From assembly GCA_963847845.1 (NCBI GenBank), contig CAWKBI010000003.1, forward strand, positions 468,483-532,482: a stretch of DNA of 64,000 bases. The letters run 5' to 3'. Below the pieces are notes generated by a model. It searched no databases and was not told the origin of the DNA. It saw nothing but the letters and a program-made list of their open reading frames with translations. Within the stretch, counting starts at the first letter, position 1. Every line of letters begins with the position of its first letter. Made by a program: the position numbers and the translations under genes. The stretch comes from an uncultured Actinomycetes bacterium. Its GTDB lineage: Bacteria; Actinomycetota; Thermoleophilia; Gaiellales; Gaiellaceae. Positions 4,219-44,989 of this stretch are shown here, one piece after another.

Positions 4219-4220
4219 AG

Positions 4221-7480: not shown

Positions 7481-9555
7481 CGAAGCCTGCGCCCGAGCTG
7501 GTCACCGTCACGATCGACGAGCGGCAGGTGCAGGTGCCGAAGGGCACCGGGATGGTCGAGACGGCCGCGGCGGCCGGGATCGAGATTCCCGTCTTCTGTT
7601 ACGAGCCGCGGCTCGGGCCGCCGGTCGGGGCTTGCCGCATGTGCCTCGTCGAGGTGGAGGGGATGCCGAAGCTCCAGGCCGGCTGCACCCTGACAGCCGT
7701 CGACGGGATGGTCGTGAAGACCGCGCGGTCGTCGGCGCAGGCTGCCGAGGGGCAGAACGCGACCCTCGAATTCATCCTCGTCAACCATCCGCTCGACTGC
7801 CCGGTCTGCGACAAGGGCGGCGAATGTCCGCTGCAGGACTTGACGTTCCGCTACGGCCCCGGCAACACGCGGATGACGTTCCCGAAGCGGACGATGGAGA
7901 AGCCGATTCCGATCTCGCCGCTGATCGCGCTCGACCGCGAACGCTGCATCCTCTGTTACCGCTGCACGCGCTTCAGCGAAGGCGTCGCCGAGGACGGGCA
8001 ACTCGTCGCGATCAACCGCGGCGCGGAATCCGTGATCGCGACGTTCGAGGACGAGCCGTACAAAGGCCACTTCTCCGGCAACGTGACCGAGATCTGCCCT
8101 GTCGGTGCGCTGACCTCGACGCAGTACCGTTTCGAGGCGCGCCCCTGGGAGATCCAGACCGTGCCATCGGTCTGCGGTATGTGCCCGGTCGGCTGCAACA
8201 TCAACGCGACGACCCGCGAGGGCAAGGTCAAGCGGATCCAGTCGCGCAACCATCCGGAGATCGACGAGGGCTGGCTGTGCGACAAGGGTCGGTTCGCCTA
8301 CGCGCATCTCGACGCCGCCGACCGGATCACGACGCCGCTCCGCAAGGCCGGCCCGCGCCGCTTCGAGCCGATCTCGTGGGACGACGCAATCGACCACGCG
8401 GCAAACCTGCTGCGCGAGGGCGGCGCATCGACCGTGACCGCGCTCTCCGGTGGCGAGTCCGTTGAGGAGGCATACGCCCTCGCGAAGCTGATGCGGCGCG
8501 GGCTCGGAGCGCACAACGCTGTGCTCACCGAGGAGCCGTCCGACTTCGGCGGCTCGCCGCTGTCCGCCCTGCGTGACGCGCACACGATCGCTGTGCTCTG
8601 CGACGTTCCCGTCGTCGAGCGTGCGCCGATCGTCGATCTCTGGCTGAAGGCCGCTCGGCGCGCCGGAGCCTCTGTCTCCTATGAGCGGCCGACAGCCGCC
8701 GTCGACGCGATCGTCACCGACGACCCGGCGAACGTCGCTCTCGTCGACGCGACGCACGTCTACGTCCTGCCGTTCACGCCGAACGGCCGCGGTGTCGCCG
8801 ACGCCTGGAGCGCGGCCGGTGACGAAGATCCCGTCGACGACTCTCCACGCGTGCTGCTCATCTCGGGCGACGAAGCCGCCATGAACGAGGACGTCCGCGC
8901 CCTCGCCGCCGAGGCGGAGATCGTGATCGGCATCGGCCTGTTCGAAGAGAGCTTCCGGAGCTTCGCCGACCTCGTTCTTCCCGGCACGAGCTACCTCGAG
9001 CGCGACGGGACGACCGTCAACCTCGAAGGGCGGCTGCAGCGCCAGCGCCGCGCCGTACTCGCGCCCGTACCCGACGTGCTCGCGTGGCTCGCGAAGCTCG
9101 GCGAGCAGTTCGGCGTCGAGATCTCTCCTCACGCCTCGGTCGTCTTCGACGAGATCTCCGAGCGCTGCTACGGCGGCGTCACCTTCGCCGAGCTCGGCGA
9201 ACGCGCCCCGCTCCCGCCGCGCGCCGCGACGCCGGAGCGACCGACGACCGCTCCAAGTAAGCCAGTGGGACAAGGCAAAGGCTTGCGCCTGATCGCCTAT
9301 AAGCCGCTCTTCTCCGGCGCCGCGGTCGAGCGAACGCCCGAGCTGCACTTCCAGCGGCCCGCCGCCGAGGTCGAGCTGTCGGCAGAGGACGCGCGCTCGC
9401 GCGGGATCCGCAACGGCGCCACCGTCACCGTCGCCTCGAACGGCACGTCGCTCGAGCTACGCGCACGGATCGCCCGCGACCTCGCGGCCGGAGCCGTTCG
9501 CATCGCGCTGGAGCACGCCGAGGGCCTGCACCTGACCGTCGAAGTGAGCGTCTAG
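7477..9555 (+). CDS. nuoG: NADH-quinone oxidoreductase subunit G
   Basis: IPVFCYEPRL...GACRMCLVEV, NHPLDCPVCDKGGECPLQD, CILCYRCTRF, CPVGALT. Confidence 0.95.
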   Translation: MTKPAPELVTVTIDERQVQVPKGTGMVETAAAAGIEIPVFCYEPRLGPPVGACRMCLVEVEGMPKLQAGCTLTAVDGMVVKTARSSAQAAEGQNATLEFILVNHPLDCPVCDKGGECPLQDLTFRYGPGNTRMTFPKRTMEKPIPISPLIALDRERCILCYRCTRFSEGVAEDGQLVAINRGAESVIATFEDEPYKGHFSGNVTEICPVGALTSTQYRFEARPWEIQTVPSVCGMCPVGCNINATTREGKVKRIQSRNHPEIDEGWLCDKGRFAYAHLDAADRITTPLRKAGPRRFEPISWDDAIDHAANLLREGGASTVTALSGGESVEEAYALAKLMRRGLGAHNAVLTEEPSDFGGSPLSALRDAHTIAVLCDVPVVERAPIVDLWLKAARRAGASVSYERPTAAVDAIVTDDPANVALVDATHVYVLPFTPNGRGVADAWSAAGDEDPVDDSPRVLLISGDEAAMNEDVRALAAEAEIVIGIGLFEESFRSFADLVLPGTSYLERDGTTVNLEGRLQRQRRAVLAPVPDVLAWLAKLGEQFGVEISPHASVVFDEISERCYGGVTFAELGERAPLPPRAATPERPTTAPSKPVGQGKGLRLIAYKPLFSGAAVERTPELHFQRPAAEVELSAEDARSRGIRNGATVTVASNGTSLELRARIARDLAAGAVRIALEHAEGLHLTVEVSV

Positions 9556-9557
9556 GC

Positions 9558-10559
9558 GTGCACGAGCCCTGGTGGATCACCATCCCGAAGGCCCTCCTCG
9601 TGATCAACGTGGTCATGGTCTTCTTCGCCTTCACCACCTGGCTCGAGCGGAAGCTGCTTGGGCGGATGCAGCTGCGCTTCGGCCCGAACCGTGCGGGCCC
9701 GAAGGGTTTGCTGGTACCGATCGCCGACTTGTTGAAGCTGATCCGCAAGGAGGCATTCGCCCCGTCGGCCGCCAAGGAGCCGCTCTACATCATCGCGCCT
9801 GTCGTCTCGATGTTCACGGCGCTGCTCGCGTTCAGCGTTCTGCCCTGGGGACGCGGCTGGACGGTCGACGGGCACTACATCAGCGGCTCCGTCGCCAACT
9901 TGCCGATCTCGCTGATCCTGATCTTCGCGCTCGGCTCGATCGGCATCTACGGATTCATCATTGGCGGCTGGGCGTCGGAGTCGAAGTACTCGATCCTCGG
10001 CTCGATGCGCACCTGCGCACAGCTCGTCTCGTACGAGGTGTCGCTGGCGCTGAGCGTGCTCGGCGTCGTGCTGATGGGGCAGTCGCTGAACCTGTCGCAG
10101 ATCGTCGACAAGCAGCAGGCGACGCTCTGGTTCTTCATCCCGCAGATCGTCGGCCTGGTGGTATTCCTGATCGGCGGCACCGCCGAGACCTCGCGCGCGC
10201 CGTTCGACCTGCCGGAGGCGGACACCGAACTCGTCGCCGGGTATCACACCGAGTACTCGGGGATGCGCTGGGGGCTCTTCCAGGCGGCCGAGTACATCAA
10301 CATGCTGACTCTCTCCGGCCTCTGCGTGACCCTCTTCTTCGACGGCTACCACTTCCCATGGGTGCACTCGCTCGACAAGTTCGGGCCTGTGTGGTTCGTG
10401 CTGAAGCTGTTCACCCTCGTCGCCGTCTTCATCTGGCTGCGCGCGACCCAGCCGCGCCTGCGTTACGACCAGCTGATGCGGTTCGGCTGGAAGGTGCTGC
10501 TGCCGGTCGCAACGGCGAACGCGGTCGTGACCGCGTTCCTGGTGGTGCTGATCAAATGA
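9558..10559 (+). CDS. nuoH: NADH-quinone oxidoreductase subunit H
   Basis: WLERKLLGRMQLRFGPNRAGPKGLLVPIADLLKL, ETSRAPFDLPEADTELVAGYHTEYSG. Confidence 0.95.
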   Translation: MHEPWWITIPKALLVINVVMVFFAFTTWLERKLLGRMQLRFGPNRAGPKGLLVPIADLLKLIRKEAFAPSAAKEPLYIIAPVVSMFTALLAFSVLPWGRGWTVDGHYISGSVANLPISLILIFALGSIGIYGFIIGGWASESKYSILGSMRTCAQLVSYEVSLALSVLGVVLMGQSLNLSQIVDKQQATLWFFIPQIVGLVVFLIGGTAETSRAPFDLPEADTELVAGYHTEYSGMRWGLFQAAEYINMLTLSGLCVTLFFDGYHFPWVHSLDKFGPVWFVLKLFTLVAVFIWLRATQPRLRYDQLMRFGWKVLLPVATANAVVTAFLVVLIK

Positions 10560-11053
10560 GCTTCGTCGTTCCCAACACACTCAAGGGCTTCGGCGTCACG
10601 TTGAAGCAGATCTTCAAGAAGCCGATCACCCAGCAGTACCCGGAGTACAAGCGCCCGGTGTACCCGCGCTACCGCGGGCGGCACCGGCTGCACCGCCACG
10701 AGAACGGTCTCGAGAAATGCGTCGGCTGCTCGCTGTGCGCGGCCGCGTGCCCCGCGGACTGCATCCGCGTCGTCGCGGACGAGAACACCGCCGAGAATCG
10801 CGTCTCCGCCGGTGAGCGCTACGCGCGCATCTACGAGATCAACATGTCGCGCTGCATCTTCTGCGGGTACTGCGAGCTCGCCTGCCCCTTCGACGCGATC
10901 ACGCTCGGCAACGAGTTCGAGATCTCGGAGTACAACCGCGACGACCTGATCTACACGAAGGACATCCTGCTCGCGCCCCCGATCAAGCGCATGCCCGTCG
11001 CCGACCGCGACCTCTACGACACTCCGATCCCCTACTACCAGGATCACAGTTAG
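10556..11053 (+). CDS. nuoI: NADH-quinone oxidoreductase subunit I (2x4Fe-4S)
   Basis: CVGCSLCAAACP and CIFCGYCELACP ferredoxin motifs. ATGA overlap with the nuoH stop. Confidence 0.95.
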   Translation: MSFVVPNTLKGFGVTLKQIFKKPITQQYPEYKRPVYPRYRGRHRLHRHENGLEKCVGCSLCAAACPADCIRVVADENTAENRVSAGERYARIYEINMSRCIFCGYCELACPFDAITLGNEFEISEYNRDDLIYTKDILLAPPIKRMPVADRDLYDTPIPYYQDHS

Positions 11054-11058
11054 AGCCA

Positions 11059-11601
11059 ATGGCAAATTTCCTGGTCTGGGTCGTCTGGTTCGTCGCCGCG
11101 TTCGCGTGCCTCGCGAGCGGCCTCGCGGTGGTCAGCTTCCGCAACCCGTTCTACTCGGCGCTGTCGCTGATCGGGAATCTTGCCGCTCTCGCCGTCCTCT
11201 TCCTGTTGCTCTCCGGTGAGTTCGTGGCGGCCGGCCAGGTGCTCGTCTACGGCGGCGCGGTGATGGTGATGTTCCTGTTCGTGATCGCCTACCTCGGCGA
11301 CCGCAGCGAGGAGTCGCCGTGGTCGGGCGGCCCGTCCTGGCAGATCCTGGGAGCCGTCGCCGCCGGCGGTGCCGTCCTGGCCGAGGTGATCGTGGTCGTC
11401 GGCCTGAAGACCGGCGGCTTCCTGACCAAGCCCAGCCATATCGGACGCAGCTTCGGCTCGCCCGAGGCGATCGGGAAGCTGTTCCTGACCGATCACCTAC
11501 TGGCGTTCGAGATCACGTCGATCGTGCTGCTCGTCGCCGCCGTCGGCGGTGTCGTGCTCGGCTCGCATGCACGCCGAACGGAGGGTGATGCACGGACCTG
11601 A
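11059..11601 (+). CDS. nuoJ: NADH-quinone oxidoreductase subunit J
   Basis: Hydrophobic 180 aa with SALSLIGNL...AAGQVLVYGGAVMVMFLFV; position in operon. Confidence 0.9.
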   Translation: MANFLVWVVWFVAAFACLASGLAVVSFRNPFYSALSLIGNLAALAVLFLLLSGEFVAAGQVLVYGGAVMVMFLFVIAYLGDRSEESPWSGGPSWQILGAVAAGGAVLAEVIVVVGLKTGGFLTKPSHIGRSFGSPEAIGKLFLTDHLLAFEITSIVLLVAAVGGVVLGSHARRTEGDART

Positions 11602-11896
11602 CATCCAGTGGTACGTCGTGCTGAGCGGCTTGCTCTTCTCGATCGGCGCGCTCGGCGTGATGCTGCGCCGCTCGCCGCTGATCATCCTGCTCTCGGTAGA
11701 GATCATGCTGAACGCTGCGAACCTGCTCCTGATCGCGTTCTCGCGGCTGCACGGTCGCGAAGACGGGCAGATCTTCGCCCTCTCGGTGATGGCCGTCGCA
11801 GCTTCCGAGGTGGTCGTCGGCCTCGGTCTGATTGTCGCACTCGGCCGCCGCGGGCTCGAGCTCGACGTCGACAAGCTGAGGACCCTCCGCGGGTGA
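11588..11896 (+). CDS. nuoK: NADH-quinone oxidoreductase subunit K
   Basis: LLFSIGALGVMLRRSPLIILLSVEIMLNAANL. Start ATG 11588 (alternatives 11567/11549). Confidence 0.9.
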   Translation: MHGPDIQWYVVLSGLLFSIGALGVMLRRSPLIILLSVEIMLNAANLLLIAFSRLHGREDGQIFALSVMAVAASEVVVGLGLIVALGRRGLELDVDKLRTLRG

Positions 11897-13767
11897 AGGC
11901 CGCCGCCTGGATCTGCCTTCTGCTGCCGCTCGCCTCGGCTGTGCTGATCACACTCGGCGGCACGCGCATCTCTCGCCGCCTGGCGGGCTACATCTCGACG
12001 CTGACGACGATGGGCTCGTTCGCGGCCGCCGCAGTCGCGTTTTTCACGATGTGGGGCGAGCACGTGTCGTCACGGACACACGTGACGACGTCGTGGACCT
12101 GGCTGTCTGCCGGGCAGTACCACTTCGGCTTCACGCTGCTCACCGACGAGCTGAGCGTGATGATGATGCTGATCGTTGCCGGAGTCGGCTCGCTGATCGT
12201 CGCCTACTCGGTCGGCTACATGGACGGCGAGAACGAAGAGCGCCGCTACTTCGCCTATATCTCGCTGTTCGTCTTCTCGATGCTGCTGCTGGTGCAGGGC
12301 GGGAACCTGCTCATCCTGCTCGCCGGCTGGGGCATGGTCGGCCTCTCGAGCTACCTCCTGATCGGCTTCTACCAGGATCGCCCGTCTGCGATCGCGGCCG
12401 CGAAGAAGGCCTTCGTGATGAATGCGTTCGGCGACGCGACCCTCGCGCTGGCGCTCTTCCTGCTGATCCAGCACACGGGCAGGCTCGACTACGCGGGAGT
12501 CTTCGCAGCCTCACCTCATGGCGGCGCGGTTGCGAACCTGATCGCACTAGGGCTGCTTGGCGGCGCAGTCGCGAAAAGCGCCCAGATCCCGTTGCACACC
12601 TGGCTGCCCGACGCGATGGAAGGCCCGACTCCGGTGAGCGCGCTGATCCACGCGGCGACGATGGTGACCGCCGGGGTCTACCTGATCGTTCGATGCCATC
12701 CGTTGTTCGAGAACGCCTACGTGATCCAGGATCTCGCTGCGGGTCTCGGCGCCGCGACACTTCTGATGGCTGGGTTGATCGCACTCGTCCAGACGGACAT
12801 CAAGCGCGTGATCGCGTATTCGACGATGTCGCAGATCGGCTACATGTTCGTCGGAGCGGGACTCGGCGCTTACTCGAGCTCGATGTTCCATCTGATGACG
12901 CATGCCTTCTTCAAGGCGTTGCTCTTCATGTCGGCCGGCCTCGCGGTCCACGCGATCGCAGGCGAGCAGGACATTCGCAAGCTCGCCGGGATCGGGAAGC
13001 TGATGCCGTTCACGAAGCTCGTCTTCGGAGTCGGCTCCCTGGCGCTCGTCGGCATCCCGCCGTTCGCCGGGTTCTTCTCGAAGGACTCGATCATCGCGGC
13101 CGGGCTCGACCGGGGCTGGTACGGGATCCTGATCGCCGCTGTCTGCCTCGTCGGCGCGTTCCTGACCGGTCTCTATGCCTTCCGCCTCTACTTCATCGTC
13201 TTCACCGGCGAGCCGTCTGCGTTCGCGCGGGAGCACTTCCACGCCCATCATGGCAAGGAGGGGCCGTTCTCGATGCGGTGGACAGTCGGCACGCTCGCGC
13301 TGCTCTCCGCGATCGGCGGCTTTCTGCAGTTCGCCCCGCTCTGGCATCCGCTCAGCCGGTGGCTCGACCCGGTCGCACGGCCGTTCGCAGAACCGACGAA
13401 CGCGCAGGAGTGGGCGATCTCCGGCGCCGCAGTCGCGTGCGGCCTGGCCGGGATGGTCGTCGCGTGGGTGTTCTACGCCGGCAAGCGTGCAGTCTTGCCA
13501 AAGACGCTCCGGCTCTTTGAGAGGAAGTTCTACTGGGACGAGCTTTACGACCTCGTCTGGTACCGAACCGGTGACGGGATCGCACGTGCGTTCTTCGCGT
13601 TCGTCGAGCGGCCGCTGATCGCCGGCTCGCTCTCTGCGGTGACCGGCGGCGCCGGGCTCGGCTCGCGCGAGCTCGGACGAGCTCAGAACGGTCTCGTGCG
13701 CTCCTACGCACTCGTGTTGGCGGGCGGTCTGGCTGTCCTCGCGGTTGTCTTCCTGGCGGCGCGATGA
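11893..13767 (+). CDS. nuoL: NADH-quinone oxidoreductase subunit L
   Basis: GWGMVGLSSYLLIGFY, AKSAQIPLHTWLPDAMEGPTPVSALIHAATMVTAGVY. GTGA overlap with the nuoK stop. Confidence 0.95.
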   Translation: MKAAAWICLLLPLASAVLITLGGTRISRRLAGYISTLTTMGSFAAAAVAFFTMWGEHVSSRTHVTTSWTWLSAGQYHFGFTLLTDELSVMMMLIVAGVGSLIVAYSVGYMDGENEERRYFAYISLFVFSMLLLVQGGNLLILLAGWGMVGLSSYLLIGFYQDRPSAIAAAKKAFVMNAFGDATLALALFLLIQHTGRLDYAGVFAASPHGGAVANLIALGLLGGAVAKSAQIPLHTWLPDAMEGPTPVSALIHAATMVTAGVYLIVRCHPLFENAYVIQDLAAGLGAATLLMAGLIALVQTDIKRVIAYSTMSQIGYMFVGAGLGAYSSSMFHLMTHAFFKALLFMSAGLAVHAIAGEQDIRKLAGIGKLMPFTKLVFGVGSLALVGIPPFAGFFSKDSIIAAGLDRGWYGILIAAVCLVGAFLTGLYAFRLYFIVFTGEPSAFAREHFHAHHGKEGPFSMRWTVGTLALLSAIGGFLQFAPLWHPLSRWLDPVARPFAEPTNAQEWAISGAAVACGLAGMVVAWVFYAGKRAVLPKTLRLFERKFYWDELYDLVWYRTGDGIARAFFAFVERPLIAGSLSAVTGGAGLGSRELGRAQNGLVRSYALVLAGGLAVLAVVFLAAR

Positions 13768-15218
13768 ACCACTGGCTGACCACGATCCTGATCGTTCTGC
13801 CCTTTGCGGGCGCGCTGCTCGTCGCCGCCGCGCCGTTGCCCGCGTACGCGATCGGCTCGCTGGCCTCCCTGATCTCACTCGTCGAGGTCGGCTTCTGGAT
13901 CACCGCAGCCGCGAAGTTCGACTTCGGCTCGCCCTCGTTGCAGCTCGGCCAGAACCACTCGTGGTTCCACGATCTCGGGGTCAGCTACCACGTCGGCCAA
14001 TACGCCTTCTCGTTGTGGCTCGTCGGCGCGACGGTCGTCGTGATGGCCGCCTGCGTGATCTACGGCTGGTGGGTCGGCCGCGAACGCGCACGCGCCTACT
14101 TCGCGCTGATGCTGATGCTGACAGGCGCGATCGTCGGCGTCTTCACGGCGCAGGACCTGTTGCTCTTCTACGCCTTCTTCGAGGCGATGCTGATCCCGCT
14201 CTACGTCCTGATCGGCGTCTGGGGCGGGCCTGGGCGGCTGCGCGCCACGCTCACGTTCGTCATCTACACCGTCGTCGGCTCGCTGCTGATGCTCGCCTCG
14301 ATCGTCGTCTTCGGATTGCAGCAGGGGACGTTCGACCTGACGAAGATGGGCACCAGCACCTCGACCTGGCTGTTCCTGGGCTTCGTCGCTGCGTTCGCAA
14401 TCAAGTCGCCGCTCTTTCCGTTTCACGGCTGGCTGCCGGAGACCTACCGCGAGTCGCCGCCCGAGATCTCGGCGGTGCTCTCGGGGATCGTCTCGAAGGC
14501 CGGCCTCTACGGCTTGCTGCGAATCGTGATCCCGAAGTTCCCTGCGGTCGTGCACGACTGGCGCGTCGTTCTGCTCGTGCTCTCGTCGATCTCGCTCGTC
14601 TATGGCTCGATGCTCGCGTTCCGCGCGCCCGACTTCCGCGGCGTCGTCATGTACTCGTCACTTGCACAGTCGGGACTGATCGGGCTCGGGCTGTTTGCGA
14701 ACAACGACCTGGGCTTCAACGGCGCTGTGCTGCAGATGGTCAACCACGCGCTCGTTTCGTCGAGCCTGTTCCTGCTCGCCGGGATGGTCGAGCGGCGCAC
14801 GTCGACCGGCGAGTTTCGCCTGCTCGGCGGGATGGCGCGAGGCCGTCCCGCGCTCGCGACGCTGATCATGGCTGTCGGGGTCGTCTCGCTGGCCGTGCCG
14901 TTGTCGGCGACGTTCGCCGGCGAGTTCCTGATTCTCGCCGGCGCCTTCCAGCAGGGCTGGGTGTGGGCGGTTATCGGTGCCGCGGCGATCGTGCTCGCGG
15001 CGATGTACATGCTCCGTGCGATCTCCGGCGTCCTACACCAGGATGTCGGCCCGGCGGTGCCGGACGAGGCGCTGGATCTGCGCGTCGGTGAGCTCGCGGT
15101 CGTGGTGCCGCTCGTGCTCTGCCTGATCGGGCTCTCCGCCTGGCCGAACCTGATCGCGCACAGATCCTTCGGCGGCGGGCACGCCACGACATCGTTACTC
15201 CAGGTGGTCGGTAAGTGA
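13764..15218 (+). CDS. nuoM: NADH-quinone oxidoreductase subunit M
   Basis: FYAFFEAMLIPLYVLIGVWGG, FAIKSPLFPFHGWLPETY. ATGA overlap with the nuoL stop. Confidence 0.95.
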   Translation: MNHWLTTILIVLPFAGALLVAAAPLPAYAIGSLASLISLVEVGFWITAAAKFDFGSPSLQLGQNHSWFHDLGVSYHVGQYAFSLWLVGATVVVMAACVIYGWWVGRERARAYFALMLMLTGAIVGVFTAQDLLLFYAFFEAMLIPLYVLIGVWGGPGRLRATLTFVIYTVVGSLLMLASIVVFGLQQGTFDLTKMGTSTSTWLFLGFVAAFAIKSPLFPFHGWLPETYRESPPEISAVLSGIVSKAGLYGLLRIVIPKFPAVVHDWRVVLLVLSSISLVYGSMLAFRAPDFRGVVMYSSLAQSGLIGLGLFANNDLGFNGAVLQMVNHALVSSSLFLLAGMVERRTSTGEFRLLGGMARGRPALATLIMAVGVVSLAVPLSATFAGEFLILAGAFQQGWVWAVIGAAAIVLAAMYMLRAISGVLHQDVGPAVPDEALDLRVGELAVVVPLVLCLIGLSAWPNLIAHRSFGGGHATTSLLQVVGK

Positions 15219-16681
15219 TCGCCAAACCGCACATCGACTGGTTCGCACTCGCGCCGGTGCTCTCGCTTCTCGCTGCGTCCGGGCTGCTCCTGATGGTCGC
15301 GGTCTTCACTCGTCGCACGATCCGCCGCGTGGTCGCTGCGTTCGTCGGCTTCGCAGGCTTCGCGGCCGCGTTCGCCTTCGCCGTCGTCTTGGAGGTCAGG
15401 AGCCCGCACCCCGCGCTGCTCGTCCACGACGCGATGTTCCGCGACCGCTGGGCTGCGCTCGCGCAGGTGCTGATCGCCGGCTCTGGCGCTGTCGCCGTGC
15501 TCGTCTCGTACCGTGAGCGCTGGCGCGACGAGCATGTGGCCGAGTATTACGCGCTCCTGACCGCCTCTGCCGCGGGGATGGCGTTCTTCGTCGAAGCGTC
15601 GAACCTGATGACGTTGTTCCTGGCGCTCGAGTGGTTCTCGATTGGCCTCTACGTTCTGTGCGCGATCGACATCGACCTGATCGGGTCGCTCGAAGCCGGC
15701 CTCAAGTACCTGATCGTCGGCTCGGTGGGGTCGGCGACATTGCTCTTCGGCTCGGCGCTCGTCTACGGCGAGACGGGGCAGCTGAGCTTCGACCGGATCG
15801 CCGCCTATGGGCACGGGGGCGACGCGATGTTGGTGCTTGGCCTGGCGATGATCATCGTGGGACTCGCGTTCAAGGTCTCAGCCGCCCCGTTCCACCAGTG
15901 GACGCCGGACGTCTACCAGGGCGCGCCGACACCGGTGACGGCATTCATGGCGTCGGCGACGAAGATTGCGGCGCTCGTCGTCACCTACCGGCTACTCGCG
16001 ACGGCCTTCCCTCACGACCAGCGACTCTGGACGTACACCCTCGCGGTGATCGCGATCATCTCGCTCGCCTGGGGCAACATCGCCGCGCTTGTCCAGCGAA
16101 ACGTCAAACGGATCCTCGCCTACTCGGCCGTCTCGCACACCGGTTTCATGCTGATCGCGATCTCGGTGGCGAGCCAGCTCGGCGAGCGGGCGCTCATGTA
16201 CTACCTCGTCCCGTACGCCGCGATGTCGATCGGCGCATTCGCCGTCGTCGCGGCCCGCGAGCGCGAGCTCGGCGTGCCGGTGACACTGGAGAATCTCGCC
16301 GGGTTCGGCTGGGAGCGTCCGTTCCTCGGCGTCTCGATGTGGGTCTTCATGCTCGGCTTCCTCGGCTTTCCGCTGACCGGCGGCTTCATCGGCAAGTTCT
16401 ACGTCTTCGCCGCAGCGTACGACCGCGGCTGGTGGTGGCTGATCGTTGCGGGCGTGATCGCGACGATGATCTCGGCGTACTACTACCTCGGGATCGTGCG
16501 TGCGATGTACTTCCGCGACTCGGCCGAGCTGCAGCTTGCACCCGCAGGCGGCTCGCCGCCGCGCGAACTGCTACTGAGCGCGGGGGTCGGGATCTGCCTC
16601 GTCGTCACGGTCGGCTCGTTCTTCGCGGTGCAGCCGTTGATCGACGTCGCCCGCTCGGCCGCGCACTCCCTTCCCTTCTAG
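15215..16681 (+). CDS. nuoN: NADH-quinone oxidoreductase subunit N
   Basis: FLALEWFSIGLYVL, FKVSAAPFHQWTPDVYQGAPTPVTAF. Overlaps the nuoM stop. Confidence 0.95.
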   Translation: MIAKPHIDWFALAPVLSLLAASGLLLMVAVFTRRTIRRVVAAFVGFAGFAAAFAFAVVLEVRSPHPALLVHDAMFRDRWAALAQVLIAGSGAVAVLVSYRERWRDEHVAEYYALLTASAAGMAFFVEASNLMTLFLALEWFSIGLYVLCAIDIDLIGSLEAGLKYLIVGSVGSATLLFGSALVYGETGQLSFDRIAAYGHGGDAMLVLGLAMIIVGLAFKVSAAPFHQWTPDVYQGAPTPVTAFMASATKIAALVVTYRLLATAFPHDQRLWTYTLAVIAIISLAWGNIAALVQRNVKRILAYSAVSHTGFMLIAISVASQLGERALMYYLVPYAAMSIGAFAVVAARERELGVPVTLENLAGFGWERPFLGVSMWVFMLGFLGFPLTGGFIGKFYVFAAAYDRGWWWLIVAGVIATMISAYYYLGIVRAMYFRDSAELQLAPAGGSPPRELLLSAGVGICLVVTVGSFFAVQPLIDVARSAAHSLPF

Positions 16682-22634: not shown

Positions 22635-23273
22635 TCAGCGAAGGGCTGCCTCGAAGCGCGGATCGTCGCGCACGGCGGCGAAATCGTCGTCTTTGCGCGC
22701 TTGCTCGCGGAACGGCGGAAAGAGCTCGGCCGACCGTCGGAGGTGGTTGAAGGTCTCGTCGCCCGTCTCACCCGAGAGGGTGGCGAAGCAGGCGTAGTTG
22801 TAGTGAAGCCCCGGGTGGTCGGGCGTGTGCTCGAGACCGCTGCGAACTACCTCGAGGGCGTCGGCGTAGCGCTGCTCGCCGTACGCGGTCAACGACTCTA
22901 TGTGGAAAGGCCAAGCGCCACCCCAGTCGAGCCCCTGATACGCCTCGCCGGGTGTCCCGCCGAGGGCGAGCACGGTTCCATCCCCCGTCGCCTTCCGCCG
23001 CGACTCAGGTCGAACGAACACGAGCGTCCCTGCGGATGCGTCGAACGTCTCGCCGTCGACTTCGAACGTCGCCGTGCCGTCGAGCACGATGTACAGCTCT
23101 TCCTGGCCGGATCCAGCCTCGTCGTGCTCGCCGATCAACGTGCCGTCTTCGCCTGGCGTGTACGCGTTGAGCCCGAAAGCGTGGATCCCGAGGTGCTCGC
23201 GCACCGGGATGTTCCTGCCGCGCTTCTCGATCTCGTCGAGACGCGCGACTTTCCAGTTCGCCGTGTCACTCAT
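22635..23273 (-). CDS. cupin domain protein with helical-repeat (TPR-like) C-terminal half, paralog family B (copy 1)
   Basis: HAFGLNAYTPGEDGTLIGEHDEAGSGQEELYIVLDGTATFEVDGETFDASAGTLVFV, then HPGLHYNYACFATLSG...DDDFAAVRDDPRF. Colinear with the 36432 and 37079 genes. Confidence 0.75.
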   Translation of the reverse strand: MSDTANWKVARLDEIEKRGRNIPVREHLGIHAFGLNAYTPGEDGTLIGEHDEAGSGQEELYIVLDGTATFEVDGETFDASAGTLVFVRPESRRKATGDGTVLALGGTPGEAYQGLDWGGAWPFHIESLTAYGEQRYADALEVVRSGLEHTPDHPGLHYNYACFATLSGETGDETFNHLRRSAELFPPFREQARKDDDFAAVRDDPRFEAALR

Positions 23274-26566: not shown

Positions 26567-26599
26567 ACACGCTCCGCTGGTGGATAAGTCTCAGTCAAC

Positions 26600-26615: not shown

Positions 26616-26637
26616 ATGGAGCAGACGTTCGTAGAGT
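26609..26637 (+). promoter_or_regulatory. candidate sigma-70/SigA-type promoter for the cupin gene
   Basis: TTGACA (26609-26614), 17-nt spacer, TAGAGT (26632-26637). AGGAGG (26655-26660) lies 6 nt before ATG 26667. The -35 box overlaps the putative operator. Confidence 0.5.
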
Positions 26638-26666
26638 CGCCTTCTCGAGAGATCAGGAGGTGGTCG

Positions 26667-27203
26667 ATGGCAGTCCAGGAAGCGCATACGGAGAAGACGC
26701 CCTACGGCGGTTACGTCACGTCGGAGGGCTGGTTCATCCACAATCTTCAGGAAGCGCTCGCGGTGCGATTTCAGCAAGGGGGTGCGCTTTACCCGCTCGA
26801 GCCACGAGAGGCCCCGTTCCGCGACATTGGCGTCAACGTGCGCGTCCTGTGGCCCGGCGATGCGAACGCGCTCTATCACCACGAGGACGCGCAGGAGGGG
26901 TTTCTCGTGCTCTCCGGCGAGTGCCTCCTCGTCGTAGAGGAGCAGGAGCGGCGTCTCGGCAAGTGGGACTATTTCCATTGTCCGCCGGGCACCGGCCACG
27001 TCATCGTCGGTGCGGGCAGCGGACCGTGTGTCGTGCTGATGATCGGCGCGCGTCGACAGCAGGAAACGTTCGGTTACCCGGTAAGCAGCGTCGCGGCGAA
27101 GTACGGCGCGTCGGTCTCGAAGGACACGAGCGACCCGCAGGAGGCATACGCCGACCGGCCCGACGACTTCGAACCGGTACACCTTCCATGGCCTACAAAC
27201 TGA
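26667..27203 (+). CDS. cupin domain protein, paralog family A (copy 2)
   Basis: GWFIHNL, LWPGDANALYHHEDAQEGFLVLSGECLLVVEEQE, WDYFHCPPGTGHVIVG, AAKYGASVSKDTSDPQEAYA. Confidence 0.8.
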   Translation: MAVQEAHTEKTPYGGYVTSEGWFIHNLQEALAVRFQQGGALYPLEPREAPFRDIGVNVRVLWPGDANALYHHEDAQEGFLVLSGECLLVVEEQERRLGKWDYFHCPPGTGHVIVGAGSGPCVVLMIGARRQQETFGYPVSSVAAKYGASVSKDTSDPQEAYADRPDDFEPVHLPWPTN

Positions 27204-32402: not shown

Positions 32403-32948
32403 CTAGCCCCAGGGCAGCAGTGGCCAGAACGACGGCCGCTCTCGCCGGAAACGCTCGGCCGTCGCATATACCTGCTCCGGATCGGATGTCTCTTTCTCCA
32501 CACTCGCGCCGTAGCGCGCTGCGAGGTCCGACACGGGATACCGCACTTCCGGGCTGATGTGCGCGCCAACCATCAGGACCACGCACGGCGCGTCGCCAGC
32601 TCCCACGAAGGCATGCTCCGTCCAGGGAGGTGAATGGAAGAAGTCCCAGGCTCGGAGGAGTCGCTCCTCGCCCTCGACGAGCAGCCTGCACTCACCGACC
32701 AGAACGAGGAAGGCCTCCTGATTCGCCTCGGCGTGGTAAACGCTGCCCTGGCCGGGCTCGAGGACGGTCACATTGATCCCGAGTTGCGCGAACTCGATCG
32801 GAGACTCGCCGTACTCGTTGGCGAACCAACACGCCGCGCCCCTCGTCTGCGACGAGAACCACTCGGCATCGCGCACGTTGACGACAAACCAACCCTCCGT
32901 GACGGGGGCAAGCCCGGAGCCGGCGTCCTCAAGCCTCGCTTCGTTCAC
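32403..32948 (-). CDS. cupin domain protein, paralog family A (copy 3)
   Basis: GWFVVNVRDAEW, VLEPGQGSVYHAEANQEAFLVLVGECRLLVEGEE, WDFFHSPPWTEHAFVG, AARYGASVEKETSDPEQVYA. Confidence 0.8.
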   Translation of the reverse strand: MNEARLEDAGSGLAPVTEGWFVVNVRDAEWFSSQTRGAACWFANEYGESPIEFAQLGINVTVLEPGQGSVYHAEANQEAFLVLVGECRLLVEGEERLLRAWDFFHSPPWTEHAFVGAGDAPCVVLMVGAHISPEVRYPVSDLAARYGASVEKETSDPEQVYATAERFRRERPSFWPLLPWG

Positions 32949-33056: not shown

Positions 33057-33974
33057 TCAGAATGCGTTCGCAGCCGATTTCCACTCCCGGAGGCGCTGGG
33101 CGATTAGCTGGGCACGCTCCTCCTCGCTCCCGCCGTCCAGCACCTGGAGGTCTGAGAGGTCGGCTCGGAGATAGATGCCGGCGGTTCGGGCGTTCAGCTC
33201 GCGGTCGTGATCCGACCGTGTCGTCCAGTACCCGGTGGCGCGGTCGGCGGTCTCGACCTTGATCTCGCCGGTGCCTTCGAGCTGGGGGGCATTCGGGTGC
33301 CGAGGTCGCTCGCCCTTCCAGAAGTAGAGGATGCCGGCCGGATCCCTGCGCTCTTTCGCAGCCTCGCTCCAGTAGCGGGCCGACAGAGTGCCGTCCTCCT
33401 GCCAGGACCGGCCGTTCACGGTCAGGCTACCGTCGCGGTCCCGCGAGATGCTCAGGAGGCTTACCGCCGACGGTTCTTCCTCGCTTCGCATGGTGAGCGA
33501 GAGCTGCCACCACAGTCCCTCGACTGGTCCGCGGCGGCCCTCGGTCTCGATCGCCTTGCGGAGCTTCTGGTTGATCGCGCGAACTTCGCCCGGGCCGGTG
33601 GCCGGGTTGTACCGGACGGAGGTCAGTCCGAGCAGGTCGCTTGGCAGCTTCGAACCGTTCGCGTGGAGGATGAACGTGCGCCGGATGCCGAGCGCGCCGC
33701 CGAATAGACCGGCCTCGAACACCACGTTGTCGCGCGGCGACGCCTGGCCGGACTCTGACGCATCCGTGGTTGTCCAGTCGTCCTGGGCGAACACGAACGC
33801 GGCGAAGTCGACCTCCTGGGAGAGCTCGACGAGCCGGTCGAGGGTGGATCGCCCCGGGTTGAACGTGGTCGTCCAGGGCTCGACGTCGGCGACATCCTCG
33901 AGCCCGTGCGTGATCGCCTGGAGCAGTTTGGCCTGCTTGCCCGACGACCCGAGGAAGATGCGCGGTTTGTTCAT
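33057..33974 (-). CDS. TIR-like (Cap12/PycTIR-type, COG4271/PF10137-like) domain protein fused to an unassigned ~150-aa C-terminal domain
   Basis: N-terminal half: PRIFLGSSGKQ...EVDFAAFVFAQDD...SPRDNVVFEAGLFGGALGIRRTFIL...KLPSDLLGLTSVRY. This parallels the consensus I recall (VFIVHG...DFAIVLLTPDD...RARQNVIFELGYF.G.LGR.RV...PSD..G). The C-terminal half (WWQLSL...YFWKGERP...GYWTTRSD...) was not recognised. Start ATG 33974. Confidence 0.7.
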   Translation of the reverse strand: MNKPRIFLGSSGKQAKLLQAITHGLEDVADVEPWTTTFNPGRSTLDRLVELSQEVDFAAFVFAQDDWTTTDASESGQASPRDNVVFEAGLFGGALGIRRTFILHANGSKLPSDLLGLTSVRYNPATGPGEVRAINQKLRKAIETEGRRGPVEGLWWQLSLTMRSEEEPSAVSLLSISRDRDGSLTVNGRSWQEDGTLSARYWSEAAKERRDPAGILYFWKGERPRHPNAPQLEGTGEIKVETADRATGYWTTRSDHDRELNARTAGIYLRADLSDLQVLDGGSEEERAQLIAQRLREWKSAANAF

Positions 33975-34213
33975 GCGCGATTCATGATGACGGACATGGC
34001 GCAAACGCTACGCCGTGGGCAGCGCATGCGGATTTGTCGTGAAGCCCTCTGATGCTACTGCGCTTTCCCTGCAACACGGCAAGTTCTCAGTCTCGTGTAC
34101 CCCTTCCTTGAGGAGCCCTGAGTCTCCCCGAAAAACCTCGAACCTATCCCCAAAACCTGTCCCGTTGCGCGGGCACAGTCGCCTAGAGCGTCTTTACGCC
34201 CGAGCCTGGTTGC

Positions 34214-34585
34214 CTAAGGCTTGGCCGGCCGCAGGGCGAGCCGCGCGTACGGTGTGAGCGCGATCAGCGCCTTCACCGCGTAGACCGCGAGCAGCGCGGT
34301 GAGCGCCGACGCACCGAGCGGGGGCACCGCGTGCATTTCGGTTGCCGGCGAGCGTGCGGCGCACGAGGCGACGAGTAGCGCGAGCGCGGCGACCCAGAGA
34401 AGTGACTGCAGGCCTCCGAACGCCCGCCGACGGTCGTCCAGGTACGCACCGAACGCCTCGAGGGCTGCTACACCGGTGAATGGGACCGCAGCAATCAATG
34501 CGTCGAAGGCGAGGCCGTGCGCTCCGCGGGAGTCCGCGACCGCGGCAGCTGCCGCGAGTAGGACCGGAAGAGCACGACGAAGCAC
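34214..34585 (-). CDS. hypothetical small integral membrane protein
   Basis: 123 aa with 3-4 hydrophobic spans (LPVLLAAAAAV, LIAAVPFTGVAALEAF, LLWVAALALLVAS, LTALLAVYAVKALIAL). No family recognised. Confidence 0.5.
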   Translation of the reverse strand: MLRRALPVLLAAAAAVADSRGAHGLAFDALIAAVPFTGVAALEAFGAYLDDRRRAFGGLQSLLWVAALALLVASCAARSPATEMHAVPPLGASALTALLAVYAVKALIALTPYARLALRPAKP

Positions 34586-35600: not shown

Positions 35601-36435
35601 GCAGATCGTCGCCACGTACTCGATCGTGGCCTGCGATCTCACCGCCGGCCAGTGGGGTGTCGCGACCCAGTCCAAGTTCCTTGCAGTCGGCTCCGTCGTG
35701 CCGTGGGCTGAGCCGGCAGCGGGCGCCGTCGCAACCCAGGCGTATGCGAATCCCCGCTACGGGCCTGAGGGTCTCGCGCTGCTGCGCACCGGAGCGTCAG
35801 CAGAGGAAACCGTCTCGAGGCTCACCGACGACGACGACGGCCGAGAGTCGCGACAGCTCGGAGTCGTCGATGCGAGTGGCGGCAGCGCGAGCTTCACGGG
35901 ATCGGAATGCTTCGACTGGGCGGGCGGGGAGACAGGGCCGTGCTTCGCCGCACAGGGGAACATCCTGGTCGGGCCTGAGACGGTTGCCGCGCTCGCCAGG
36001 ACGTTCGCCGACACCAAGGGGCAGCCGCTGGCGCGGCGCCTGGTCGACTGCCTTGCGGCGGCACAGGCCGCCGGGGGCGACCGGCGCGGGCAGCAGTCGG
36101 CGGCGCTCTACGTCGTAGAGCGAGACGGCGGCTACGCCGGCCTCAGCGACGTTCTCGTCGACCTCCGCGTCGACGATCACCCCCGGCCGATCGAAGAACT
36201 CCGCCGCATCTACGGCCTGCACGACGTGCTGTTCGGAAAGACGCCCCGCGATCAGTGGCTCGACATCGATGAGACGCTCGAGGCGGAACTAGCTGATCGC
36301 CTCGCCCGGCTGGGCTACGACGGCGTGCTCGGCCATGCCCTCCCGGCGTGGGCGGGCACGGAGAATCTCGAGGAACGGATCGACGGTGTCGACCAGATCG
36401 ACCCGGTCGTGCTGCGAGAGTTGCGCTCCAGATGA
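35593..36435 (+). CDS. DUF1028 (Ntn-hydrolase-like) family protein with C-terminal helical domain
   Basis: TYSIVACDLTAGQWGVATQSKFLAVGSVVPWA...GAVATQA...GNIL...RRGQQSAAL pattern typical of DUF1028. Confidence 0.75.
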   Translation: MGEQIVATYSIVACDLTAGQWGVATQSKFLAVGSVVPWAEPAAGAVATQAYANPRYGPEGLALLRTGASAEETVSRLTDDDDGRESRQLGVVDASGGSASFTGSECFDWAGGETGPCFAAQGNILVGPETVAALARTFADTKGQPLARRLVDCLAAAQAAGGDRRGQQSAALYVVERDGGYAGLSDVLVDLRVDDHPRPIEELRRIYGLHDVLFGKTPRDQWLDIDETLEAELADRLARLGYDGVLGHALPAWAGTENLEERIDGVDQIDPVVLRELRSR

Positions 36436-37082
36436 GCGACCAAGGCTACGAAATCCTCTCGATCGACGAGCTCGACCGGCTGCCGACGACCGCCGGCACG
36501 CAGGTCCTGCGACCGCTGCGCCGGCGGCTCGGCTTCCGCCCGTTCGGGGTGAACGTCTGGGTTGGCGCCCAGGAAGGCGATCAGGTGATCGAGCCGCACC
36601 GCGAGCCGAAAGGGCCGGAGGAGCTCTACGTCGTGCTTCGCGGCACGGCGCACTTCACACTTGGCGACGAGTCGTTCGACGCGCCGGCAGGGACGCTCGT
36701 GCACGTGCCGCCCGACACGTTCCGCGAGGCAACCGCGGCCGAGCCCGAAACATCGGTGCTCGCAATGGGCGCCGAGAAGGGAAAGGCGTTCACGCCGTCG
36801 GCGTGGGAGGACTTCTACGTCGCCTACGCCAAGCTTCGCGCGGGTGACGCCGCAGCCGGCCGAGTCGCTTTGGGCGAGGCGCTCGGACGCGACCCCGAAG
36901 CCTGGCAGGGCCAATTTAACGCCGCCTGTTTCGAAGCGCTGGCCGGCGACACCGATGCGGCGCTCGCCTACCTTCGAAAGGCCGTCGAGCGAAACCCCGC
37001 GGAGGTCAAGCAGTACGCACCGAACGACAGCGATCTCGACTCGATCCGCTCCGACCCGCGCTATGCAGAGCTGTTGGCATGA
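36432..37082 (+). CDS. cupin + TPR-like protein, paralog family B (copy 2)
   Basis: FRPFGVNVWVGAQEGDQVIEPHRE..EELYVVLRGTAHFTLGDESFDAPAGTLVHV, then FNAACFEALAG...DSDLDSIRSDPRY. ATGA overlap with DUF1028. Confidence 0.75.
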   Translation: MSDQGYEILSIDELDRLPTTAGTQVLRPLRRRLGFRPFGVNVWVGAQEGDQVIEPHREPKGPEELYVVLRGTAHFTLGDESFDAPAGTLVHVPPDTFREATAAEPETSVLAMGAEKGKAFTPSAWEDFYVAYAKLRAGDAAAGRVALGEALGRDPEAWQGQFNAACFEALAGDTDAALAYLRKAVERNPAEVKQYAPNDSDLDSIRSDPRYAELLA

Positions 37083-37705
37083 CCGTCGTCCACATCGACG
37101 AGCTCGACAAGATCCAGATGCCAGACGGGCTCGTGTGGCGCCCGATCCGGCGCCACTTCGATATCCGTGCGTTCGGCGTCAACGCCTACACCGCCGCGGC
37201 CCCCGGGGGGATGATCGTCGAGGAGCACACCGAAAACACCCTGGGCCACGAGGAGATCTACCTGGTGCTTCGCGGCCGCGCGCTCTTCACCGTCGACGGA
37301 AACGACCACGAGCTCGAAGCCGGCCGGCTCGTCTTCGTTCGCGACCCCTCCCTGAAGCGCGGCGCCGTCGCGATCGACGACGACACCGTCGTGCTCGCAC
37401 TGGGCGGCAAGCCGGGCACGCCGCACGAGGTCTCGGCCTGGGAGGCGATTTTCGCCGCTGTTCCCGCCTCGCAGCGCGGTGACTGGGACGAGGCGATCCG
37501 CATCCACGACGAGGCTCTCGCCGAGCAGCCCGAGCATCCGGCACTGCTCTTCAACGTCGCCTGCATGGAGGCCCGCGGCGGCCGCCACGTCGATGCGCTC
37601 GACCATTTGCGGCGCGCGATCGAGCTGGAGCCGAAGTGGGCGAAGGCTGCGCGCGAGGACACCGACTTCGACTCGATCCGCCGCGAGCCGGGCTTCCCGG
37701 CCTAG
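37079..37705 (+). CDS. cupin + TPR-like protein, paralog family B (copy 3, tandem)
   Basis: IRAFGVNAYTAAAPGGMIVEEHTE..EEIYLVLRGRALFTVDGNDHELEAGRLVFV, then LFNVACMEARGG...DTDFDSIRREPGF. ATGA overlap with copy 2. Confidence 0.75.
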   Translation: MTVVHIDELDKIQMPDGLVWRPIRRHFDIRAFGVNAYTAAAPGGMIVEEHTENTLGHEEIYLVLRGRALFTVDGNDHELEAGRLVFVRDPSLKRGAVAIDDDTVVLALGGKPGTPHEVSAWEAIFAAVPASQRGDWDEAIRIHDEALAEQPEHPALLFNVACMEARGGRHVDALDHLRRAIELEPKWAKAAREDTDFDSIRREPGFPA

Positions 37706-44530: not shown

Positions 44531-44989
44531 GTGGCCGTCCTCTACCTCGACCTCGACGGCTTCAAGGAGGTCAACGACCGGCATGGTCACCAGACCGGCG
44601 ACCGGCTGCTCGAAGCTGTCGCGGCGCGCCTGCGTTCGGTCGCCCGTGCCACCGACCTGGTCGCCCGGATCGGAGGGGACGAGTTCGTGATCCTCCTGAG
44701 CGACCTCGCTCCGAACGGCGCCGCCGCGATCGCCGACGAGGTGGCTAACCGTGTCCACGACATCGTCGGCCGGCCGGTTCAGATCGGAGAGATCCCGATC
44801 CGGGTATCGGCAAGCATCGGGATCGCGCTCCATCCGACCCACGCCGCCGACGCGGACGGGCTCGTGGCGGCCGCAGATGCCGCGATGTACGCGAGCAAGC
44901 GCACGGGCCGTGCCCGCACGACGAGCGCCGGCGAGCCCGTGACAGCCAGCCACGCGAAGGGCCGCGGACACCTGCGTCCCGCCGGTTAG
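44531..44989 (+). CDS. GGDEF domain protein lacking the N-terminal ~30 residues of the domain and any sensor (possible 5'-truncated remnant)
   Basis: VAVLYLDLDGFKEVNDRHGHQTGDRLL...ARIGGDEFVILL...SASIGIAL...ADAAMYASKRTGR. An in-frame TGA lies 14 codons upstream, and only about 80 nt separate it from the EamA stop. Confidence 0.65.
   Translation: MAVLYLDLDGFKEVNDRHGHQTGDRLLEAVAARLRSVARATDLVARIGGDEFVILLSDLAPNGAAAIADEVANRVHDIVGRPVQIGEIPIRVSASIGIALHPTHAADADGLVAAADAAMYASKRTGRARTTSAGEPVTASHAKGRGHLRPAG

Follow-up and report, generated by a model that had tools for sequence, protein, structure and literature searches.

What does a Toll/interleukin-1 receptor (TIR) effector respond to when no signal-making enzyme is encoded beside it? 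The question is raised by a gene at 33057–33974 on the reverse strand of a 64,000-nucleotide (nt) stretch of contig CAWKBI010000003.1 from an uncultured Actinomycetes bacterium of the Gaiellaceae; the whole stretch is referred to below as the window. An earlier reading of the letters alone (the sequence-only reading) took the gene for an orphan TIR-like effector with an unrecognised C-terminal domain. The encoded protein of 305 amino acids (aa) carries an N-terminal TIR domain with a complete set of active-site residues, followed by a predicted eight-stranded barrel that belongs to a new sequence family, and the gene is widespread and horizontally mobile. The TIR-barrel gene, as it is called here, seems somewhat more likely than not to encode a self-contained, ligand-gated, oligomerisation-activated NAD+ hydrolase, analogous to Cap12 and PycTIR and equipped with a different, possibly Cap15-like, sensor. 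Its parts are as follows.

33057–33974, reverse strand: coding sequence of the 305-aa TIR-barrel protein, ATG at 33974, TGA stop at 33057–33059 (translation and stop codon checked)
33570–33974, reverse strand: N-terminal TIR domain of the Cap12/PycTIR clade, residues 1–135 (PF10137, PADLOC, PDB, Foldseek)
33540–33593, reverse strand: predicted linker helix from TIR domain to barrel, residues 128–145 (AlphaFold2 secondary structure)
33165–33518, reverse strand: predicted eight-stranded beta-barrel, putative ligand sensor, residues 153–270 (AlphaFold2 model and Foldseek)
33063–33158, reverse strand: C-terminal helical hairpin, residues 273–304 (AlphaFold2 helices 273–281 and 284–304), kept across the family

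The TIR domain and its active site

The assignment of the N-terminal domain to the Cap12/PycTIR type, made in the sequence-only reading, is borne out by every kind of comparison listed above. According to Pfam, PF10137 (CAP12/Pycsar effector TIR) matches over model positions 1–118 of 119 with E=1e-23 (84 bits, the cutoff being 24.7). The PADLOC models for TIR effectors of CBASS (antiphage signalling by way of cyclic oligonucleotides) match residues 1–135 with E=7e-35 and the PycTIR model with E=5e-25, and PDB chains of Cap12 match the TIR half at 32–34% identity (7UN8, E=1e-18; 9LMQ, E=2e-17). The TIR part of the AlphaFold model superposes on TIR-STING structures with a Foldseek E-value of 8e-10. 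The motif blocks quoted in that reading (IFLGSS, DFAAFVFAQDD, PRDNVVFEAGLFGG, and PSDLLG) are all present in the translation.

In SfSTING, the NADase pocket is made up of F6, W33, F37, L47, S10, R78, and N80, with E84 as the catalytic residue and D110 supplied by the opposite TIR domain (PMC9402430). Mapped through the alignment to the PDB Cap12 chain, whose index equals the native number plus 8, all 9 positions are identical in the TIR-barrel protein (F7, S11, W34, F38, L48, R81, N83, E87, and D113). The glutamate that was expected to align with the catalytic position in a profile search thus does so, E87 (codon 33714–33716, reverse strand) lying on E84, together with 8 further active-site residues, among them D113 (codon 33636–33638) on D110. 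An alignment reaching homologs of 36% identity shows each of the 9 as invariant or nearly so. Judging by its residues, the domain is probably an active NADase. Since D110 of SfSTING reaches into the site of the neighbouring subunit, the retained D113 suggests, by analogy, that activity should require TIR–TIR packing of the same kind.

The C-terminal barrel

The C-terminal half had been described as beta-rich and as matching no known sensor. The former statement agrees with the AlphaFold model of the C-terminal domain (16-sequence alignment; pLDDT 87, pTM 0.82), which has 8 strands in residues 153–270 followed by 2 helices in residues 273–304. The latter is correct for sequence libraries and is revised by structure, where a resemblance to the Cap15 receptor barrel appears. 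Residues ~146–305 have no match in Pfam, NCBIfam, PADLOC, or the PDB sequences even at E≤10, whether they are used as a single sequence or as a profile. Scanned exhaustively with HMMER, 1.84 billion representative proteins yield 399 representatives of the barrel family, mostly fragments, so the family is compact. By these comparisons the barrel represents a new family of sequences, well conserved and fit for a new domain definition. Family-invariant positions are G153, W155, W156, Q157, E167, G188, W191, G195, S203, Y217, W219, G221, G234, G236, G248, and Y268; most are aromatic residues or glycines, with i/i+2 spacing on the strands. In the hairpin, L295 is invariant and R287 nearly so. Stand-alone barrel proteins of 174 and 208 aa were also considered and rejected, as they begin at an internal Met of the full-length protein and represent truncated or frameshifted gene calls.

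Compared with PDB structures by Foldseek, the C-terminal domain retrieves lipocalins, avidins, nitrobindin, and designed barrels at E-values of about 1e-2 (identity 9–15%, TM-score 0.4–0.6). Among predicted viral structures (BFVD), the top match is a protein annotated as SMODS-associating 2TM beta-strand rich effector domain (S-2TMbeta/Cap15), with E=3.6e-5, probability 1.0, TM-score 0.62, and 153 aligned columns; the E-value of the next match is ~80-fold weaker. Structural neighbours other than S-2TMbeta are small-ligand-binding barrels, and no match to an unrelated enzymatic fold, which would have spoken against a sensor, was found in the Foldseek searches. The predicted fold is certainly of a small-ligand-binding architecture, and a distant relationship to the receptor barrel of Cap15 is possible.

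Cap15 and the 2TMbeta effector of Panoptes use the S-2TMbeta barrel as a cyclic-dinucleotide receptor (PMC12657230). For sequence comparison, 3 partial Cap15-type barrel segments were taken from the supplement of the same paper. The hidden Markov model (HMM) of the barrel family aligns all 3 in one register, with per-target E-values of 0.001, 0.0025, and 0.035, which are weak matches with bit scores of 0–5. In this register, itself a weak alignment, the Cap15 ligand residues Y153, Y155, Y188, and M200 fall on Y217, W219, W250, and Y268, 3 of which are family-invariant; when T129 of YaCap15, which falls on S190, is included, 4 of the 5 binding positions are aromatic. The pairwise score between the window protein and EaCap15 exceeds those of all 300 shuffles. 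The window protein has no hydrophobic segment (maximal 19-residue Kyte-Doolittle hydropathy 1.17), and it carries the TIR domain in place of the 2 transmembrane helices.

Effector exchange on the same barrel

The barrel and hairpin are found in 3 identified effector contexts, namely, behind the PF10137 TIR domain, behind a TIR_2 domain with a transmembrane segment (P0236, 450 aa), and behind 2 transmembrane helices, the layout of Cap15 (P0211, 221 aa; L105, 229 aa). In a further protein, P0218, they follow an N-terminus that is truncated and has no identification. For L105, Pfam reports no match at E≤0.01. By analogy, in conflict systems that signal with nucleotides, a C-terminal module that stays constant while the killer modules in front of it are exchanged marks a sensor domain. 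This pattern of exchange, the ligand-binding type of the barrel, and the best structural match to the Cap15 family are the grounds on which the barrel is taken as the probable sensor, in line with what the sequence-only reading had proposed for the C-terminal domain.

Distribution, selection, and horizontal spread

According to a genome scan with one genome per species, the family is present in at least 581 species, mostly Thermoleophilia (581 relatives confirmed out of 600 pattern matches). The best 80 loci encode proteins 86–94% identical to that of the window and are labelled as Gaiellales, Solirubrobacterales, and Miltoncostaeales (class Thermoleophilia) or as unclassified Actinomycetota. 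Loci labelled Gaiellaceae are no closer to the window copy (88–94%) than those of Solirubrobacterales and Miltoncostaeaceae (88–92%); copies from other orders thus reach 90–92%. The most divergent members lie on contigs too short to reveal their gene context, and the metagenome scan gave two contigs only, of 1.2 and 1.5 kb. A separate observation concerns locus L054 (CAZJSY010000094.1), 90% identical and located on a 13-kb contig labelled as an uncultured Burkholderiales metagenome-assembled genome (MAG), which reflects either mis-binning or cross-phylum transfer.

The window also contains a complex I (nuo) operon at 4080–16681, with NuoF at 5919–7280, NuoG at 7477–9555, and NuoH at 9558–10559. 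NuoF places the window in Gaiellaceae, its best database matches being 92–93% identical and those that are named being Gaiellaceae MAGs. NuoF identity declines from these 92–93% for the nearest relative to 84% at rank 30; at rank 120 it is 77%, where the TIR-barrel protein is still 87% identical. Against a dozen species, the TIR-barrel gene has synonymous divergence (dS) of 0.16–0.27 and third-position identity of 0.82–0.885, whereas the nuo genes have dS of 0.41–0.56 and third-position identity of 0.68–0.78 against their nearest database relatives, which are not the genomes that supplied the copies of the TIR-barrel gene. The nuo values are close to the plateau, since a NuoF of 86% identity gives the same dS.

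The TIR-barrel gene, with a median dS of 0.29, has an overall dN/dS of about 0.16 (75 orthologs); the ratio is 0.13 in the TIR domain and 0.20 in the barrel, and purifying selection acts on the gene. Neighbour clustering shows that almost every locus has a different context, and none of the 8 flanking proteins of the window occurs near the gene in the 87 other loci. The homologs, widespread as they are, show no synteny with housekeeping genes; a strictly core, syntenic arrangement had been named as one that would contradict the sequence-only reading. Because protein identity holds better than that of NuoF and dS lies below that of the nuo genes, the copies are younger than the genomes that carry them, and the gene has moved horizontally, together with its own leader, among soil Thermoleophilia. 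No transfer vehicle was identified among viral contigs and plasmids. Given a gene carried by at least this many species of an abundant, poorly studied group of soil bacteria and still spreading, its role, whatever it may be, would be ecologically widespread.

Several loci have an imperfect direct repeat of 16–21 nt (core GCGTAGCGTG) that flanks the gene at a constant spacing of 966 nt, e.g., L012:7955-7975 / 8921-8941 and L023:7956-7971 / 8922-8937. It could be an insertion relic or a duplicated promoter element. The repeat was not detected in the window, and its 11-mer core is not specific genome-wide.

Neighbouring genes

The survey of neighbours covers the 150 immediate neighbours of ~80 non-redundant loci, annotated with Pfam and PADLOC. 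The Pfam families counted include CBS (20), alpha/beta-hydrolases (15), TCAD9 (4), and the class III cyclase domain (3). A recurrent companion is a 143-aa CBS-pair protein, encoded at most 260 nt from the gene in 35 of 88 loci (L004–L007 and about 30 others; e.g., L005:7560-7991). It is placed co-directionally upstream, convergently downstream, or divergently upstream, and it resembles Rv2626c/Hrp1 of M. tuberculosis (PDB, E=2.5e-21). In the divergent branch of the family (32–40% identity to the window protein), a Cupin_2 protein of 124–136 aa adjoins the gene in 3 of 4 loci with readable flanks (L091:243-617, L105:967-1377, and L088:1082-1291). These cupins are 43–48% identical to one another and adjoin both TIR-barrel and 2TM-barrel genes, in 3 arrangements, and a small Cupin_2 is possibly a partner in this branch. 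Neither the CBS-pair protein nor the divergent-branch cupin matches a PADLOC defence model, and neither is present in the window. Other neighbours at the loci are Usp, a GAF histidine kinase, cytochrome bd, ADH, and PAS-LuxR regulators.

As a side observation, a ~285-aa alpha/beta-hydrolase (Abhydrolase_6) often adjoins the CBS-pair protein. Another is a ~484-aa protein with TCAD9, APH-kinase-like, and DSP-phosphatase domains, located directly beside the gene in L027, L040, L049, and L066 (L066:1874-3325); such domains are associated with 'ternary' conflict systems.

A conserved cyclase partner was sought and rejected. Class III cyclases lie near ~6 of 85 loci and differ in size (420–1092 aa), architecture, strand, and distance, and PycC is represented by one weak match among the 150 neighbours. 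The description of the gene as an orphan thus stands in that no conserved cyclase accompanies it, and needs amendment in that the family is very common and often lies beside a CBS-pair protein or, in divergent branches, a cupin. As for the question of whether homologs sit in defence islands or next to cyclases, the sequence-only reading had left both outcomes open; the absence of a cyclase partner agrees with it, while a defence-island setting is not observed.

Proposed mechanism and alternative explanations

In the favoured reading, oligomerisation would follow when the barrel binds or loses a small nucleotide-like ligand; it would bring the TIR domains together and turn on NAD+ cleavage, and the cleavage would result in growth arrest or cell death. 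If the barrel does bind a nucleotide, the family would represent an abortive-infection effector wired to a signal that is made elsewhere, possibly a housekeeping messenger.

Several results weigh against this reading. Regarding the signal, no CD-NTase (cGAS/DncV-like nucleotidyltransferase) was found among the surveyed neighbours or in the window, and the class III cyclases near some loci are consistent with the actinobacterial background. Regarding defence, PADLOC matches among the neighbours are scattered, with 1–2 each for mad2, GajA, AriA, DrmC, and PycC, and the TIR-barrel loci are not a defence island. The full-length protein is absent from viral contigs and plasmids, where the TIR half alone has matches, and for an immune effector it is unusual to be so prevalent and yet show no visible diversification. 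As for the structure, the full-length AlphaFold2 model has a pTM of only 0.61, which makes the arrangement of the domains uncertain. The Cap15 link is weak, as it rests on a single match between 2 predicted structures. Several other pairwise scores with Cap15 sequences are no better than those of shuffles; hhalign against Cap15 gives a probability of 1.7%, with shallow profiles and the 3 partial sequences; and at E≤10 neither the C-terminal domain nor P0211 and P0218 match a Cap15-type family in Pfam or PADLOC. The solved YaCap15 barrel (7N34/7N35) is absent from the top 50 Foldseek matches in the PDB, which holds no structure of EaCap15.

Of the competing explanations, the one to be taken most seriously, although it is still improbable, is a physiological switch, i.e., a hydrolase of NAD+ or nucleotides gated by a metabolite or by energy status, serving stress, hypoxia, or dormancy and acting with the Hrp1-like CBS protein or within its regulon; the biochemistry would be that of the favoured reading, put to another use. 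The frequent CBS-pair neighbour with its 3 orientations and its resemblance to Rv2626c, the other neighbours listed above (Usp through PAS-LuxR), the lack of a defence-island context, and the combination of very high prevalence with purifying selection would all suit it. However, every characterised PF10137 TIR is an abortive-infection effector, and bioinformatic TIR surveys include the family but give no function for it. Conflict systems typically show exchanges such as that of the TIR domain for 2TM and TIR_2 modules, horizontal spread without synteny is unusual for a core regulator, and 60% of loci, the window included, have no CBS gene. A lower probability is given to the barrel being a module for protein recognition or oligomerisation, which would trigger TIR assembly without any nucleotide signal upon contact with a phage protein or with a CBS or cupin partner. 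The lack of a conserved signal-making enzyme nearby, the recurrence of small partners (the CBS pair in the main clade and the cupin in L088, L091, and L105), and the marginal sequence link to Cap15 would fit such a module. Its structural neighbours, in contrast, are all small-ligand binders, its aromatic and glycine invariants with i/i+2 spacing are as expected of a pocket lining, and most loci have no recurrent partner.

Two further explanations appear very unlikely. The TIR domain might be a signal generator in the manner of Thoeris ThsB, making a messenger derived from ADP-ribose for an effector elsewhere in the genome; many bacterial TIR domains do produce signals, and no toxic partner would be needed in cis. 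Against this, the domain belongs to the PF10137 clade with an active site of the SfSTING and not the ThsB type, no ThsA-like, SLOG, or Macro effector recurs nearby, and the barrel's alternative N-termini are 2TM killers, which would place the terminal effector at the N-terminus. Equally little credit is due to a two-gene unit in the window, formed by the TIR-barrel gene and the Cupin_2 gene 108 nt downstream in parallel to the divergent-branch cupin. The 2 genes share a strand with no terminator-like site in the gap, and a cupin does recur beside divergent members, but the window cupin (32403–32948) belongs to a multi-copy family (paralog at 26616–27203), has no significant similarity to the partner cupin, and adjoins the gene in none of the 87 other loci.

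A more speculative version, which we regard as improbable, treats the protein as an orphan guard effector that watches the pool of a housekeeping messenger (e.g., cyclic di-AMP, c-di-AMP) or, equally, as a built-in NAD+-depleting dormancy switch of Thermoleophilia. As a guard, the barrel would be held inactive by a constitutive messenger, and depletion of the latter by a phage sponge or nuclease, or by metabolic collapse, would release TIR assembly. This would amount to Panoptes-like inverse signalling without a dedicated cyclase, with the CBS-pair neighbour as a possible co-receptor for that messenger. Binding of c-di-AMP is known for CBS-pair proteins that stand alone, e.g., DarB and CbpB.

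Start codon, leader, and surroundings of the gene

The longest open reading frame (ORF) of the gene is 33057–34004 on the reverse strand and would give 315 aa from a TTG. The protein read from the ATG at 33974 begins with MNKPRIF and has 305 aa, as do nearly all of the thousands of homologs. The N-terminal extension from the TTG is rejected because substitutions in the leader show no codon periodicity, the second type of leader has an in-frame stop, and the homologs have 305 aa; judging from these comparisons, the ATG at 33974 is almost certainly the true start. Codon-position GC (guanine plus cytosine) values of 0.66/0.50/0.86 (GC3 0.86) are typical of a real gene at 68% GC. The features on either side are as follows.

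33975–34020, reverse strand: type A leader, putative promoter element, 46 nt, kept upstream of the TIR-barrel gene across unrelated contexts
34021–34213, reverse strand: rest of the 239-nt intergenic region upstream of the gene, lower in GC, not conserved among loci
32403–32948, reverse strand: Cupin_2 gene (PF07883, E=3e-13), downstream on the same strand after a 108-nt gap, not shown to be part of the system
34214–34585: hydrophobic 123-aa ORF, the other neighbour of the gene

Among loci, ~46–55 nt upstream of the ATG are conserved in 2 types, of which the window has type A; type B has an in-frame TGA 21 nt upstream of the ATG. A short 3′ tail of the gene is also conserved. Type A includes a −10-like TANNNT hexamer (TAGCGT, 34005–34010) and a core, TCCGTCATCATGAATCGCGC, at 33975–33994, which occurs once in the window; its 42 occurrences in 1.27 Mb of loci all lie upstream of the TIR-barrel gene. 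The leader probably acts as a promoter. A regulon-wide operator is rejected, as the leader motifs sit upstream of this gene only, and so is a riboswitch or other structured leader, given that Rfam reports no match and folding gives z=−0.38. A scan of the leader for sigma-70 consensus promoters and terminators returned no match.

Type A may also contain a mini upstream ORF (window 33971–33997, reverse strand: ATG TCC GTC ATC ATG AAT CGC GCA TGA). It begins 7 nt past the TAGCGT and ends in a stop that shares bases with the main ATG (ATGA). Its first ATG is absent from some loci, and its sequence ATGAATCGCGC resembles a partial duplicate of the real start, ATGAACAAACCGCGC.

The leader had been called the least GC-rich in the window. 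The length of ~240 nt (239 nt) and the low GC are correct (0.598 over 34005–34213, where the window as a whole has 0.680; this places it among the lowest 0.7% of 209-nt windows), while the rank is not, as this is the second-lowest trough and the one near 26584 is lower. The immediate neighbours are a cupin and a small membrane protein with no cyclase adjacent, just as the sequence-only reading described them; past the hydrophobic ORF lie an MBL-fold hydrolase and a DUF1028 protein.

Five cupin or cupin-TPR paralogs are found within 15 kb around the gene (22635–23273, 26616–27203, 32403–32948, 36348–37082, and 37079–37705). This cluster suggests a locally expanded family, in which case the adjacency of a cupin to the TIR-barrel gene is likely due to chance. 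A 152-aa ORF at 44531–44989 (forward strand), 11 kb from the gene, looks like the GGDEF domain of a diguanylate cyclase (RIGGDEFVILL); it begins inside the domain and may be a truncated gene or have a mis-called start.

Comparison with known systems

Among the closest known systems is Cap12, the TIR-STING effector of CBASS (SfSTING 7UN8 and 9LMQ), which has the same size of ~305–310 aa, the same order of N-terminal PF10137 TIR and C-terminal sensor, and presumably the same logic, with the NADase activated by sensor-driven oligomerisation. Cap12, however, has a STING C-terminal domain, and the window protein matches it no further than residue ~150. With the NCBIfam Cap12 equivalogs the protein reaches 86.5 and 49 bits, where the cutoff is 450. 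Cap12 is encoded with a CD-NTase, which the TIR-barrel loci lack both in the window and among the surveyed neighbours, and the hosts of the TIR-barrel gene are Actinomycetota.

PycTIR (8JSJ, E=8e-10) shares the TIR clade with the window protein and is likewise a single-polypeptide NADase gated by a nucleotide. Its order is reversed, with the sensor, a cyclic nucleotide monophosphate (cNMP)-binding domain, at the N-terminus and the TIR domain at the C-terminus. According to Pfam, the window protein contains no cNMP-binding domain, and no conserved PycC cyclase is found nearby.

Regarding the C-terminal domain, Cap15/S-2TMbeta provides the best structural match, and the relatives that combine 2TM with the barrel (221–229 aa) share its layout. 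The differences are the 2 transmembrane helices of Cap15 in place of the TIR domain and the added C-terminal helical hairpin of the barrel described here. Cap15 and OptE of Panoptes are paired with a CD-NTase or mCpol, partners not seen at the TIR-barrel loci. The calycins (lipocalins, avidins, and nitrobindin) have eight-stranded up-and-down barrels like that predicted for the C-terminal domain, a likeness at the level of fold with no sequence relationship; unlike them, the window protein is cytosolic and fused to an enzyme. Two features of its barrel presumably recall the calycin signature, namely, G-x-W in the first strand (G153-L-W155) and a basic position, R270, in the final one.

To our knowledge, TIR NADase effectors have been described with STING, SAVED, and cNMP-binding sensors and always paired with a cyclase. 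No description of a TIR domain joined to the uncatalogued barrel was found in the literature searched. A catalytic TIR module joined to such a barrel, possibly a distant Cap15-type receptor, without a signal synthase is a new domain combination. Based on its sequence comparisons, the TIR-barrel protein is not Cap12, PycTIR, or Cap15; it appears as a known type of effector equipped with a new sensor family, orphan and horizontally spreading.

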